From: a virus
Taxonomy: Duplodnaviria; Heunggongvirae; Uroviricota; Caudoviricetes
Virus record (IMG/VR): IMGVR_UViG_2684623127_000006
DNA: 64,000 bases
Strand: one strand, 5' to 3'
Shown piece after piece: positions 27,001 through 33,000 of the stretch. Made by a program: the position numbers. How positions within the stretch are numbered: the first letter of the stretch is position 1; the number at the start of each line of letters is the position of its first letter.

Positions 27001-30000
27001 AGAGGAGTCTCCCTGTCGGGCTGCGGTCTCTGTTAATGCAGGAATACGGCGACGATACGGCGCATCAGCAAAACTTAGTTCAGGCACTGAGTGCGGATAT
27101 AGTCCTGTGCCCCTTCCAGCTGCTTCTGCATTGTCATCAACCGTTCTCTGAGGATGAAATAATCCCGTTCAGCGGTGTCTGCCAGTCGGGGGCCGGTTGC
27201 ATTATCCACGCCGGAGGTGCCGGTGGCTTCACGCACGGTACCGGAGCAGGTGGCGTTGATCCGCAGGCGCTTACGACCAGCGGCAACATCAGCACGCAGA
27301 GTTTCATTTTCAGCTCTCGCATCGGCTAACTCCCTCGAGTATTTTGCATCGAGCGCAGCAACATCACGCTGGCGCACCTGCATGTCAGTAATGGTGGCAT
27401 TCGCCTGTTCCAGCTCTCTGGCTTTTTTATCGCGCTGCGCTTTGTAGGTGAGCGCGTTGTCACGGTAATGGTTTGTTGCCAGCCACAGCGCACCATAGCC
27501 AACCGCCAGGACAATAATCACCACACACAGAACACGGTTCATCTCTCTTTCACCCCACCAGTCCCGATAACGTCAGGACTCGCCAGGCGGTGGAAAAGAA
27601 AATGGCAACCAGCATGACTAAAAATGAAATGCCGACAAGTACACAGAGGCTCTTCACCAGCGTTATGAGTTTATCTGATATCATTAGCCACCCCATCAAT
27701 CCGCCTTTGTTATTTTCCCTTTGCCTGTATCAGCCAGGACAAAATCAATCAGCATATTCGCTTCATTTACCAGCGTACGGATTTTTGATACATGCGCGGC
27801 TTTAACCTGTTTCCACTCATTCAGCCCGGTAGCAAACACACTGGCAATGTTTTTATCCCGTTTCATGTCAGCACAAGCCTGGTTGAGTTCTTCCATCACG
27901 CTCATTTTACGGGGATTAACGACAAAACCCTTCGTCCAGTACTCGTAAAGAACATCGTCGCACTCTTCCTGATACCGGATGACCTTATCGCGGATTTCGG
28001 GTTTTACTTTGTTGGGATTAATGGTTTGTAGCCAGCCGGCAAGTTTTCGAAGTGGCATGGACACCATATTGCGTTGTTTCCCATCCTCAGCAACCATAAC
28101 GATTTCCGTTATAGTTGACGCAAAACGCTGTCTTAACTTAGCCAACTGTGATTGCCAGGCCAGCCCCATCCCCGCAACGACAGGTTTCATGGGAACGTAT
28201 GGTTCGCCATTATGGTTAACTACATAAAGAGAGTTGCCGTGAAACGGCACGGCCATCATATTCATCGGTTATTTCCTTTTAGTGATGAACCTTGTCTCAC
28301 AGGAATCCAGCCCACAGAAAGGCACCGACAGCCAAACCGGTATCCTCAAGGGTCATCCTGAAAGGTTCTGTGTTGTGAGATGCGCGTGAGATGCGCAGAA
28401 ATGACAAAGGCATCATTACGGTGCCTGAGTGTTAAACAACTGTTTTGACTTTATTCACTTACATTTTGCCAATTTGCAGGATTTCGTGTTATCCGTCCAT
28501 GTAAGCAAACCTCATTTTTCAGCAAAATATTCTGCTTATCTGTCGATTCCCCAGCACGCCAGCGCGCTCTCCTGGTCACGACGGGATACCTGACCGTAAC
28601 AGTTGTTTGAACGAATACGGCAGTCTCTGCCACCGTCCTTAATCCACCAGCGAATCGCTTCGCAGGCACCTTTTCGATCTCCTGCATTAATTCGTCTGTA
28701 AAACGTCGACGGGAAACACTTACCGGGACCAATGTTGTACGGACAGAATGACGCGATCCCCGCTTTCTGGGGTTCGGTCAGCGGCACTCTGATGTTTTTC
28801 TCCACCCATGCCAGCGCCTTATCACGCTCAATGGCGTTAACCCGGTCGCATTTTTCCTTCGACAGCTTCATGCCAGGAATAACAGGCTTACCATCCACCC
28901 GGGTGGCTCCACGGCAGATGGTCCAGATACCCGCACCATCACGGTATGCTGTGGTGTGGTTACCTTCCTTTTCATCCAGAAACTGGTCGAGGATTTCAGG
29001 CGCAGACGCCCCTGCACCAATCAGCGCCAGAACGGCAGCCGACAGGCCGTATCTGATTTTTGCGTTCATGGATATTTATCAGGGTTTATCGATTTCAAAT
29101 CCCTGGATATGTTAAGTCTTCAGGCCAGCGGTGGAGTCTTCAGAGAACCCGTAATTATTCCCGGTAGTTTTCCTCTGTAGGTTATCAACACATCCTGCGC
29201 CTCTAAAATTACGGGACGCTTTTCCGGTAACGGACCATCCCCTTCACATAACCCGGCAGCAACATCCATGAAAAACTGCTTCGCCTGCTTTTTCGCCTCA
29301 GCTTCGTAAAACTCCAGCGTGGCACCTTCAGTACGGTCAAGACTAATCGCCACATCTGGCAACAACAGTGACGGATACCCACCAATTTCCAGTGCCACAG
29401 TAACAGTAATCTTATCCGGGTAATTATTTATCCCTTTAACAACCAGTTCGTATTTTTTCTTCATCACTTTACTCTCCCCGCGCCGCCTTACGCCGGTCTT
29501 CTTTAATCTTGAAATACAGGTTCGTCAGATATGTCAGCAGCCCAAACAGCAGACTCCCCAGCACGCCTATCGCCACCCACTGGGACGGAGAGACTTTGTC
29601 CAGCAGCTGCAGTAACCAGTATCCCGTCCCCACCGCTGACGTGGTGTATGACACACCCGTTGTGATTTTTTCCATCTGATGTATGTCTCCGTCACCGCCG
29701 ACAGAAAATGAAAGTAAAGGAAAACAAAAAAGCCGCCAGTGTCACCCACTGACGGCCAACGCCGGGAGCCGTGATTATGGCATTCAGGCTCTGCTAAAAA
29801 TGCCAGATAACATTCCGGCCTCCCCCGATTCAGGTTATAAATGACACAATATCTTGACAACATCCGTCACTGTCTGTCAGAAAATGTACTGCCATATAGA
29901 AGCAACATGTGAAGTACATCTATCCTTTTGAGCCAGCACCTCTCCACCGAAAGTCAGTGCTGGCTGTTTTTTTCCTTAATAAAGCATCTGTAACTGAAAC

Positions 30001-33000
30001 AATCCGCATATTGATAATATATTGACAGGCATCATTGCTGTCTGTGAAAAATAAGTCTCTACAAACATATAAGGCCTTTTAGCCAGCGTCTTCTTTTTCA
30101 GGTCAGTCGCTGGCTTTTTTTATTATGCTGCCGGTGCATTTATCTCCAGCATCAGACTTTCTATCTCAACGCCATACGCTGCATTTTTTGTAACATCCGT
30201 CAGCGTCAGCGCATTCAGTCCCAGTGTCAGACTGTCTTTTATAACCTGGAATGCCGGGCCAGCCACTCCATTCAGTTTCGGAGTAACCGTGGCACTGCCG
30301 GCGGTGAACACCAGCTCCAGCGTCTGCCAGTCGTTACCGTAATCGCCGAACTCCCCCAGCTTCGTGTTTCCGGCTTTCCTGTGATGCATCAGATTCACTC
30401 TGCCGTCAGTGGTCTGAGTGAAGTACGACATCAGGAACGGATTACCGGTACCCGTCATCGCCACACCATCAGGAACGGGAGCGTCCGTATACAGATAAAT
30501 CCCCAGCCCGAACTGATTGTTGGTCAGTGCGCCTGACAGGCGGAACTTACAGGTCAGTCTGCCGCCCTGTGTCAGCAGGGTAATTGCGTCATCCACCGGA
30601 TGCGTCAGGGACCAGGTTTTATTGCTCTGCCTGGTGATCTTAAATACACCATCTGACAACTGAATTCCGCCATCCTTAATGCTCCAGCCCTGCGCAGCAG
30701 CCTCTCCGGCTGCCGGCAGCAGGGAGATTGTGCGAACGGACGTATCTGCAGACGGACCCGATGGCGTGTTGCCGCCGGGCGAGGGTTTGATTTCCGGTGC
30801 CTTACCACTGATGAAGGCTGAGGTGCGCCCGGCTGCGTTCAGAATAGCGGTTGCCAGACGATCCGGAATAATGCTCCTGCGCGCCCATGAACTGAAATGT
30901 GTCGGGCGGTTTGATGATACCTGGTTTCCATTCGTTCTCGATGCCGCACCGTAATATCCTGATGCCGGAATATCCGGATCTTCTGCCGGCGCGTTAGTGG
31001 CGGTATTGACGCCGTTACCGTCTGTCATGAAGGGCACAAAATAAACGCCCTCACTCTCCCTGTTTTTATACCCGCCGTACACGGTGTCGTACTGGGTAGC
31101 GTATGTATTTTTCCAGTAATACGTCGTGTCACCACAAATCCACGGCACATCTGCAGCACTGCCACCATGGCACTGCGCGTTAAACACGGAGAGGTCAGCA
31201 CGAAACTGTGTCAGCATGGCTGTAAACAGCGCAGGTTGCTGTGCGTGGGTGGCGGCGCTCATGTCAAACTCTCCCTGCATCCAGCACACCGCCAGCAACA
31301 CATTTTTCGGGTTCTTCTGTAATGCAGCTTTGGTGCGCGCAATCAGGTCCTGATATAACGGTTTACCCACACCCCAGCGCGCCGAATCCTGGCTGGCCCC
31401 CGTGGACTCGCTGAATATCCCCTCCGCGCCCTGGGTAAATGCCGAACCACCACGACAGCATGGTACCAGCAGGATCCCCGCGTTATTCGGGATATACGGG
31501 AGCAGTTTTTTGGCAATATGTAACCCCTGGCCGACACAGCCGTACTGCCCTTTGCTCAGGTCTGCCTTCGGATGATTCAGCGTACTCATATCCTGCACAT
31601 CATGCAGGCAGTGGTCGGCCGGAATAATATCGTTATATCTGCAGGCAGCCCCACCCGGCGTCACTGTACTGCGGCGCGCCAGCTGTTTAATGCGCGGATC
31701 CGGAGCATCGTATGAATCCGGCAGCGGAAGCCCTTCACCGTAAGCCATGGCATTGGACTGCCCGGCCAGTACGATGACGTAGTACCAATCCGGCTCAGTT
31801 GCACCACTGACCACCACATCACCTTCTGCTGTAATCGCCTGCATCAGGGTATAAGGGGTTATGGCCACCGGACTACCAAACGGCTGCCAGCCCTCTTTCA
31901 GTTTGTGTGTCAGCTTTTCCGCAAGGTCTGACGGCGACGCCGCCCTGACAACATCATAATGTTTAATCGACATCGAATTTCTCCCGTGTACAGGAACAGA
32001 GTTAAAAAGCCGGAACCGGAATCAAATCACAGGATGACCATCTGCCAGTGGCTGGTCGTAAAAAAAAGCCGCGCCATGCGCAGCCGGAAATAAAGGGATA
32101 ACGATGATAGTTTGAGAAAAACAGAAACAACACTTTTGTGGCAAAGCATGGTGCCGGGTGCCTCCCGGTGAATTCAGTATCAGCACCTGAATCCGCGATT
32201 ATCCCATATACCTGGTTGCTGATCGCCCCTCCGCACAGGGGGATTCACCATGCAGAAGTGTTTTTAATAAACAGCAAACAAAAAAATCAAGCATTATGCA
32301 GGCTGTTTCTTTTTATCACCGGCCACAGCAATACCACAATGCCGCAGACCAGCACCCCATCCGCCAGCACCGACATGATTCTGCTGGTGAAATCCACCAT
32401 CACCACCAGAAACAGCAGGAGTGCAGCCACAGCCAGGCGCAGTTTTACCGTCACAGGTGATTCTCCAGACGAAGACCCAGAACACCGGCAATCTCTTCCA
32501 GCACCTTGCGCTCTTCCGGCTCAATTTCGCCGTCTGCCTCCGCAATGGCCACCGCCACATCCAGCACATCTTCCGCTTCACGCGTATCGTGTTTCACATC
32601 CTCAATCTCACGTAACGCCGCACGACGACCAGTTTTAAAGTTCGTATCCAGCTGACCGATAATGGTTGCGCTAATCGCATTAATTTCTGACGTAAACGCG
32701 GACAGCGCAGGCTGATTACGCAGTACCTGTTCGATCTTCGCTTTCTCGGATGCCTCACATTCACCATCTGCACAGGCCACCAGGTATGCGGCGTTAATCA
32801 CCACCTGTGCCAGATCGCGTTTTTCAAACTTTTTAATTTCCGTTGCCGCTCTGCGGGTTTTCTTTTTGAAGATTCCAAACATCGTGACGTTCCTTTGGGT
32901 GGGTGAGCCAACGCCCGGGAGCGATCTGCCCACAGAGAAAGTCACACTGACCACTCCGTAAGCTCACCCCCGAAAGGCTCTGTGGTTGGTATGCGCCGGG

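Follow-up and report, generated by a model that had tools for sequence, protein, structure and literature searches.

What, if anything, is encoded on the plus strand between the esterase and holin genes of a lambdoid prophage whose late operon runs on the minus strand? The DNA considered here (the window) is a stretch of 64,000 nucleotides (nt) from a virus of the Caudoviricetes, IMG/VR virus record IMGVR_UViG_2684623127_000006, and the host element is a non-stx lambdoid prophage of E. coli O157:H7. Its esterase-holin spacer, 29676-30122 (447 nt), holds two similar plus-strand units. PGAP annotates nothing in this spacer in an identical genome, and Rfam returns no family for the spacer region (27000-36000 searched at E<=1, the whole window at the gathering score); as neither RNA is in Rfam or PGAP, the region appears empty in annotation. 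The first-pass annotation, made from the sequence alone, had read the two units as small RNA (sRNA) genes on the plus strand, antisense to the late operon, and that reading is borne out. Unit 1 is the already published sRNA PasA. Unit 2, on which the Hfq-bound candidates EcOnc51 and EcOnc52 fall, is a diverged tandem paralogue of pasA that previous work lists among the Hfq-bound RNAs of E. coli O157. We think it very probable that the spacer carries tandem paralogous sRNA genes, antisense to the late operon, whose products are bound by Hfq and pair in trans with mRNAs. Despite the blank annotation, PasA ranks among the best-connected accessory sRNAs of enteropathogenic E. coli (EPEC). The elements of the units were all found where the first-pass annotation had placed them, on the plus strand between the esterase stop and the holin start. 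With the two flanking genes, they are as follows.

29469-29675, minus strand: class II holin gene (open reading frames and PGAP annotation of the identical genome).
29854-29885, plus strand: promoter-like block of unit 1, a putative promoter, with TTGACA at 29854-29859 and the conserved CTGTCTGT at 29870-29877.
29877-29882 (TCAGAA) or 29880-29885 (GAAAAT), plus strand: weak -10 candidates of unit 1, read from the sequence.
29889-29973, plus strand: pasA (unit 1), specifying the major 85-nt PasA sRNA; 100% identical to EPEC E2348/69 (NC_011601.1, 743499 to 743415).
29889-30124, plus strand: minor PasA isoform of 236 nt, which reads through terminator 1 to terminator 2 (mapped by alignment).
29902-29914, plus strand: body of unit 1, GCAACATGTGAAG, read from the sequence.
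29931-29973, plus strand: terminator 1, with stem AGCCAGCAC/GTGCTGGCT at 29931-29965, then G and T7 at 29967-29973; annotated in phage 434 (OL657226).
29932-29941, plus strand: published PasA seed, GCCAGCACCU (Fig. S5 text and Table S7 of PMC8550237), which overlaps the 5' arm of terminator 1.
30000-30052, plus strand: promoter-like block of unit 2, a putative promoter, with AATATATTGACA, TTGACA at 30022-30027 and CTGTCTGT at 30038-30045.
30045-30052, plus strand: -10 candidates of unit 2, TGAAAA or AAAAAT, read from the sequence.
30057-30121, plus strand: unit 2, a PasA-like sRNA of ~65 nt; EcOnc51/EcOnc52 in the enterohaemorrhagic E. coli (EHEC) strain Sakai and 'pasA.E2348C_0688.IGR' in EPEC.
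30059-30074, plus strand: body of unit 2, CTACAAACATATAAGG, read from the sequence.
Within unit 2, plus strand: unit-2-specific stretch, CUCUACAAACAUAUAAGGCC.
30081-30121, plus strand: terminator 2, with stem AGCCAGCG/CGCTGGCT at 30081-30115 and T6 at 30116-30121; annotated in phage 434.
30123-31973, minus strand: SASA/NanS-p-type esterase gene, 616 amino acids (open reading frames and PGAP annotation of the identical genome).

Unit 1 shows no difference from the PasA of EPEC E2348/69 over 85 nt, and has the same promoter region, seed, terminator, position and orientation. In that strain PasA is encoded on the opposite strand between the esterase gene E2348C_0688 and the holin gene (Pearl Mizrahi et al., 2021; PMC8550237), and is found as a major form of 85 nt and a minor form of 236 nt ending at 743264 (Table S6, PMC8550237). 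The 3' end of the minor form corresponds to window position 30124, namely, the second terminator, and the published northern probe, GCCAGCACTGACTTTCGGTGGAGAG, matches the reverse complement of 29940-29964 exactly. Northern blot and RIL-seq both confirmed PasA, its stability is Hfq-dependent (log2 fold change of -2.78 in Table S2, presumably for the hfq deletion against wild type), and it ranks 12 among all RNAs by number of RIL-seq partners (PMC8550237). Transcripts, 3' ends, Hfq binding and mRNA partners have all been demonstrated for identical or near-identical sequences of EPEC and EHEC. The plus-strand transcripts that had been predicted, ending at the hairpins, are represented by the 85-nt PasA on northern blots and by RIL-seq chimeras of unit 2 that end in its U-tract. 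The Hfq association comes from published RIL-seq and Hfq-dependent stability in EPEC, and from Hfq-CRAC in Sakai, on identical sequences.

The two units are paralogous. They have in common AATAT-N-TTGACA-N10-CTGTCTGT, (C)AGAAAA, ATAAG, CCTTTT(G)AGCCAGC, and GCTGGCT(G)TTTTT, and the TTGACA-N10-CTGTCTGT block occurs exactly twice in the window, both times in the spacer. The block of unit 1 is invariant across all the copies of PasA and of its relatives, PasA-2 and PasC, that were examined, and the published PasA 5' end lies 35 nt downstream of the first base of its TTGACA. Similarity of unit 2 to PasA is only ~60% (MAFFT alignment). The seed GCCAGCACCU is identical in the PasA and PasA-2 copies examined, and is conserved among PasA variants (Zhu et al., 2026), but is absent from unit 2, which has GCCAGCGUCU instead. 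Terminator 1 folds with z = -3.45 (1 of 200 dinucleotide shuffles as good) and terminator 2, which abuts the esterase stop codon (30123-30125), with z = -6.28 (none of 200). Comparison of terminator 1 with the terminators of unit 2 and PasC reveals one compensatory pair, A-U to G-C. A simple terminator scan reported hairpin 2 only by its inner part because the loops exceed the 8-nt limit of the scan.

Which strand do the hairpins serve? On the minus strand, an A-run precedes each stem and no T-run follows. The T-runs lie 3' of the stems on the plus strand only, so the hairpins would terminate only plus-strand transcription, in agreement with the first-pass annotation. The stems do fold on the minus strand too (z = -2.26 and -3.07), as they should if they were stability or processing elements of the minus-strand late mRNA and the plus-strand features were incidental. 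However, with the T-runs so placed, with the promoter blocks conserved, and with plus-strand RNAs documented to end at both hairpins, this is the least probable of the explanations weighed here. An exclusive role of this kind, an objection that had been raised at the outset, is contradicted by the published plus-strand transcripts.

Unit 2 has also been seen before. It consists of a 24-nt single-stranded 5' region followed by the terminator; we infer its 5' end (~30057) from the edge of an Hfq peak and the spacing from the -35. The Hfq-CRAC peaks of EcOnc51 (Sakai prophage Sp12) and EcOnc52 (Sp4) map to window-equivalent 30054-30130 and 30056-30133, respectively, both on unit 2. The peaks are discrete, 77-78 nt long, and start 32-34 nt after the first base of TTGACA (30022). 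EcOnc35 (Sp4), at window-equivalent 29883-29956, is the PasA-2 form of unit 1. The peak starts (29883 for EcOnc35, 30054-30056 for EcOnc51/52) are thus ~30-35 nt past each TTGACA, and both units had by 2014 been catalogued as candidate sRNAs that bind Hfq and end in Rho-independent terminators. Reads from RNase E-CLASH confirm the mapping directly: one labelled EcOnc51 contains TCATTGCTGTCTGTGAAAAATAAGTC (old coordinates 2237458-2237483), and one labelled EcOnc52 contains the unit-2 terminator (supplement of PMC5286369). The Sakai unit-2 terminator differs from that of the window in having a loop 2 nt shorter and CTCTTTTT. The EPEC authors cite EcOnc51/EcOnc52 as the EHEC homologues of PasA as a whole (PMC8550237). 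The mapping corrects this: EcOnc51/EcOnc52 are the second unit, not PasA, and EcOnc35 is PasA-2.

The EcOnc coordinates are those of Table S2 of Tree et al. (2014), given on an older Sakai record, and were recalibrated to NC_002695.2. The EcOnc08/21/42 probe gave an offset of 0 in Sp4 and +138 in Sp15, and the Rfam match to AgvB in Sp10 gave +137 to +146. At face value the coordinates would place EcOnc51 on unit 1, a placement rejected by the probe, AgvB and CLASH-read calibration (offset +138). On the old record, unit 1 of Sp12 runs from ~2237314 to ~2237398 and unit 2 from ~2237482 to ~2237546; the Sp4 interval is 1182074 to 1182010. More generally, the coordinates of Tree et al. (2014) are shifted against NC_002695.2 by 0 at 1.18 Mb and by +138 for 1.94-2.92 Mb. 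Uncorrected mapping onto the current Sakai record misplaces the EcOnc sRNAs, and shifts EcOnc51 from unit 2 to unit 1.

What do the two RNAs pair with? PasA has 41 RIL-seq partners, 36 of them in coding sequences (CDS) or 5' untranslated regions (UTRs), three in 3'UTRs or intergenic regions, and none an sRNA (Table S5, PMC8550237). It is the second RNA in 94-100% of the chimeras, the typical sRNA position, and its top partners include ftsB, frr, and the 3' end of the esterase mRNA. Unit 2 ('pasA.E2348C_0688.IGR') has five partners, four in CDS or 5'UTRs and none an sRNA, and takes the second position in every chimera; the one with escD ends in the U-tract of the unit (window-equivalent 30094-30121). 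The published target motif of PasA, CUGNUGCUGG, is complementary to GCCAGCACCU at 29932-29941 (PMC8550237).

These partners bear on the function that the first-pass annotation had proposed, that the units could work as anti-sRNAs like those of EHEC prophages (AgvB and AsxR), with their CA-rich 5' bodies titrating GcvB or other GU-rich core sRNAs. The design is indeed alike. AgvB and AsxR are also short Hfq-bound RNAs of lambdoid prophages, encoded opposite to the late operon in the moron area of the late region and made up of a variable 5' region and a conserved 3' terminator, and short CA-containing stretches do exist in the window units. We nevertheless consider the sponge function highly improbable. 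RIL-seq lists no sRNA partner for PasA, PasC or the unit-2 entry, and the lone sRNA partner of GcvB is consistent with the gcvB::sroC chimeras listed. Phrases denoting a gcvB-pasA chimera number 0 in the RIL-seq table, a search that tab-separated columns may defeat; the partner counts of Table S5 were used instead. The CA motif (CAACA, or GCAACATG) is not conserved, being replaced by GTATCATG in PasA-2 and PasC. Pairing with GcvB, the check suggested with the proposal, gave energies no better than those of dinucleotide shuffles: against GcvB or R1, a fraction of 0.2-0.8 of the shuffles was as good or better, compared to 0.04 for full-length AgvB with full-length GcvB. The RNAduplex energies are weak evidence, the AgvB control itself being only modestly above its own shuffles (better than ~96%); the method has little discriminating power, as a GU-rich target pairs with CA-rich shuffles too.

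The comparison with AgvB and AsxR fails in sequence and in position as well. There was no match to the Rfam models of AgvB (RF02702) or AsxR (RF02703) in 27000-36000 at E<=1 or in the whole window at the gathering score, whereas the same search finds AgvB in Sakai Sp10 with 96.5 bits. In Sp10, AgvB abuts STnc100, is convergent with it and lies upstream of the esterase gene; the window units lie downstream of theirs. The window does have an STnc100 gene in the corresponding place:

32110-32282, minus strand: STnc100/PasD-type sRNA (104.7 bits), just upstream of the esterase gene.

This STnc100, in contrast to that of Sp10, has no convergent partner of the AgvB/AsxR type. In short, the window RNAs show no sequence or covariance-model similarity to AgvB and AsxR and no specific complementarity to GcvB, and PasA partners mRNAs; PasA-type RNAs should not be grouped with the AgvB/AsxR anti-sRNAs.

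On the reading that we prefer, of tandem trans-acting sRNA genes, the spacer of this O157:H7 lambdoid prophage would carry two paralogous genes directed opposite to the late operon. The product of pasA would be an 85-nt RNA that binds Hfq, is stabilised by it, and pairs through the seed GCCAGCACCU with numerous mRNAs, from the core genome as well as from virulence elements. A fraction of the pasA transcripts would pass terminator 1 and end at terminator 2, giving the 236-nt form. Unit 2 would produce a shorter PasA-like RNA from its own TTGACA block, with the 24-nt single-stranded 5' region and its own terminator; it too would be bound by Hfq and enter chimeras with mRNAs. The TTGACA blocks would be the promoters, unit 2 would be transcribed independently, and pairing would presumably affect the targets.

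Several points weigh against this picture. The -10 elements are poor (in unit 1, TCAGAA, or GAAAAT with a 20-nt spacer), and a consensus promoter scan called neither promoter-like block, missing them because of the poor -10. Zhu, Shabalina, and Storz (bioRxiv, 2026) derive the PasA 5' end by cleavage of a longer transcript, in which case the promoter would lie elsewhere. They also remark on the unusual placement of a seed within a terminator stem. For none of the targets of PasA or unit 2 is a regulatory outcome on record, and published work calls the function not elucidated. As to unit 2, a single CLASH read spans 30033-30058, ahead of its putative start, so a read-through RNA certainly exists. 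Finally, the unit-2 copies of Sakai Sp4 and Sp12 are identical, and reads cannot be assigned to the copy that stands alone.

Is unit 2, then, a gene of its own? The same CLASH read would be expected if there were a single gene, unit 2 being a fail-safe terminator or 3' extension of PasA and its Hfq signal coming from the 236-nt isoform or from processing products. In Pearl Mizrahi et al., 'pasA.E2348C_0688.IGR' belongs to PasA, which has an 85-nt major and a 236-nt minor form (PMC8550237), and EcOnc51 and EcOnc52 come without a northern blot in Tree et al. (2014), and without a name or a description as a separate paralogue in earlier work. We regard the single gene as somewhat unlikely, however. 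The promoter block of unit 1 recurs in unit 2 in its entirety, not the hairpin alone, and the onset of its discrete Hfq peaks past TTGACA mirrors the position of the PasA 5' end in unit 1. Moreover, the ratio of unit-2 to PasA chimeric fragments in RIL-seq shifts with growth condition, from 2.4% (119/4983) to 47% (54/116).

Unit 2 is also kept alone. In Sakai Sp4 an insertion sequence (IS)-associated rearrangement cuts exactly between the units, at window-equivalent 29998-30000. Three other loci that have unit 2 without unit 1 differ in their upstream junctions, all of which fall within ~5 nt of 30000-30006, and unit 2 without unit 1 is found at ~100 plasmid sites. In one diverged plasmid copy that was read, ~90% identical overall, the stretch from TTGACA to AAGT is 100% conserved. 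Among IMG/VR prophage contigs there are 37 tandems of both units, 21 single units of the PasC type, and eight lone unit-2 terminators, some of which may be truncated by contig ends. With these contexts set against the read-through RNA, we judge the independence of unit 2 to be close to an even call, leaning slightly in its favor. Should unit 2 be transcribed independently, current counts would miss several copies of an uncharacterised Hfq-dependent regulator in EHEC and EPEC strains.

Two of these contexts can be described further. The Sp4 split (NC_002695.2, 1182009-1182130 and 1186376-1186700) is associated with IS629 and its holin side is inverted. It leaves unit 2 with the esterase gene, as EcOnc52, and unit 1, in the form of PasA-2, with the holin gene, as EcOnc35. 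One of the ~100 plasmid sites, in pZ1323MEC0002-3 (NZ_CP148316.1), is a relic (3001-3125 of the segment read) made up of a unit-1 tail, a complete unit 2 (~90% identical, with its promoter block unchanged), and the final 87 nt of the esterase gene. The carriers of the relic are virulence-type plasmids of 80-95 kb, and the relic is flanked by IS elements.

How are the members of this family related? PasA and PasA-2 have promoter, seed, and terminator in common and differ in ~40 nt of the body. The predicted 5' stem-loop of PasA is not conserved in PasA-2 and was for that reason left out as a feature. The 5' bodies and the terminators act as modules, since mixed combinations exist, of a PasA body with a C-type terminator and of a unit-2 body with a C-type terminator. 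PasC of EPEC E2348/69 (prophage PP5) shares the promoter block and the location by the esterase stop, and its 5' body is of the PasA type. However, it is a single unit that ends in a terminator and tail (AGCCAGCG...CGCTGGCT TTTTTTATTAT) like those of unit 2. From its sequence, PasC looks like a recombinant, or a deletion, between units 1 and 2, and a pasA locus that is a tandem paralogue pair with recombining modules would explain it. Zhu et al. (2026) explicitly reject tandem duplication as the origin of the pasA copies, and the unit-2 neighbor went unnoticed there. The full combination, that unit 2 is an independent tandem paralogue with its own promoter, seed, and targets (such as escD of the locus of enterocyte effacement), that PasC is a recombinant, and that both units additionally have a cis effect on the late transcript just upstream of holin and on the 3'UTR of the esterase mRNA, seems to us plausible, if just short of probable. 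OmrA/OmrB and PrrF1/PrrF2 are likewise neighboring sRNA paralogues that have separate promoters and terminators, and in which read-through gives longer species. The likeness is an analogy only, since here the independence of unit 2 is putative, and PasA has a different 5' body and seed region. The novelty that remains is modest, and consists of unit 2 as a diverged pasA paralogue, the reassignment of the EcOnc candidates, and PasC as a probable recombinant; the significance beyond annotation is little.

Could the RNAs act mainly on the genes opposite them? A further feature of the spacer is relevant here:

29721-29757, minus strand: late-strand intrinsic terminator, with an 11-bp stem and a T-run (terminator scan; fold z = -3.96; annotated in phage 434).

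It separates the sRNA genes from the holin gene, whose start is 55 nt downstream. Transcription of the esterase moron probably stops here in lysogens, and the Q-modified polymerase must read through. The esterase 3'UTR, like the late transcript, would then be antisense to both RNAs over their full length. It is thus conceivable that the main role of the units is in cis, as antisense RNA or by convergent transcription, tuning the stability of the esterase mRNA or holin expression and the timing of lysis. In favor of such a role, both RNAs are encoded on the opposite strand of the esterase-holin spacer with the late-strand terminator downstream of them, and they are fully complementary to the late transcript just upstream of holin. 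The 3' ends of the E2348C_0688 and E2348C_1246 esterase mRNAs are among the best PasA motif targets in RIL-seq (PMC8550237). In the window, the 3' end of the esterase CDS (30145-30155, minus-strand mRNA) carries CUGAUGCUGGA, which is the published PasA target motif, and PasA may regulate its own neighbor, the esterase. Also, chimeras of the late-strand entry 'pasA.E2348C_0689.IGR', which is window-equivalent 29876-29894 on the minus strand, over the PasA promoter and 5' end, number 19 under activating and 798 under non-activating conditions, reciprocal to those of PasA (4983 and 116; Table S5, PMC8550237). But the partners are mostly core and virulence mRNAs encoded in trans, the units stay conserved once parted from the esterase or holin gene, and no lysis or esterase phenotype has been reported. 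We therefore think a main role in cis unlikely; a cis role would add to the trans-acting regulation, not replace it.

According to Zhu et al. (2026), PasA and PasC adjoin holin, and PasD2, a relative of STnc100, lies across the esterase gene. The synteny of the window fits this setting, with holin on one side and a PasD/STnc100-type sRNA across the esterase, and prophage PP2 of E2348/69 has the sRNA gene in the same place between esterase and holin. The window segment 26000-38000 is 100% identical to strain NE122, and 26713-27075, the single segment compared, is 100% identical to Sakai Sp12. Sp12 is an almost identical prophage, but it carries the PasA-2 variant of the 5' body, unlike the PasA of the window. 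Matches to Stx1 phages had suggested that the window is Sakai Sp15, an identification that was rejected because the esterase-holin spacer of Sp15 differs. The entire spacer is near-identical in EPEC E2348/69, Sakai Sp12, phage 434, and E. albertii, and is carried by ~690 of 5426 complete E. coli genomes. Among 185,579 GTDB species representatives, the tandem promoter block was found only in E. albertii, with 98-99% identity, apart from ~8 chance matches, in line with a reported distribution limited to Escherichia and Shigella.

Other RNA genes of the prophage are the sok antitoxin RNA at 37598-37772 (minus strand), with an annotated Hok/Gef gene nearby, DicF at 44994-45045 (plus strand), and tRNA-Arg and tRNA-Ile at 33055-33128 and 33232-33304 (both minus strand). 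There is also a copy of HnrS (EcOnc10/11/12), a 66-nt prophage sRNA, at 26809-26874 (plus strand), to which the EcOnc10 peak maps (26816-26864). HnrS was considered as a candidate for unit 2 and rejected, as it maps ~3.2 kb away. Its 3' end is the CTGCTGTG/CACGGCAG hairpin followed by T7, and it carries CUUCU, the complement of the AGAAG sequence in the ribosome-binding site of hha, of which HnrS was reported in 2026 to be a repressor.

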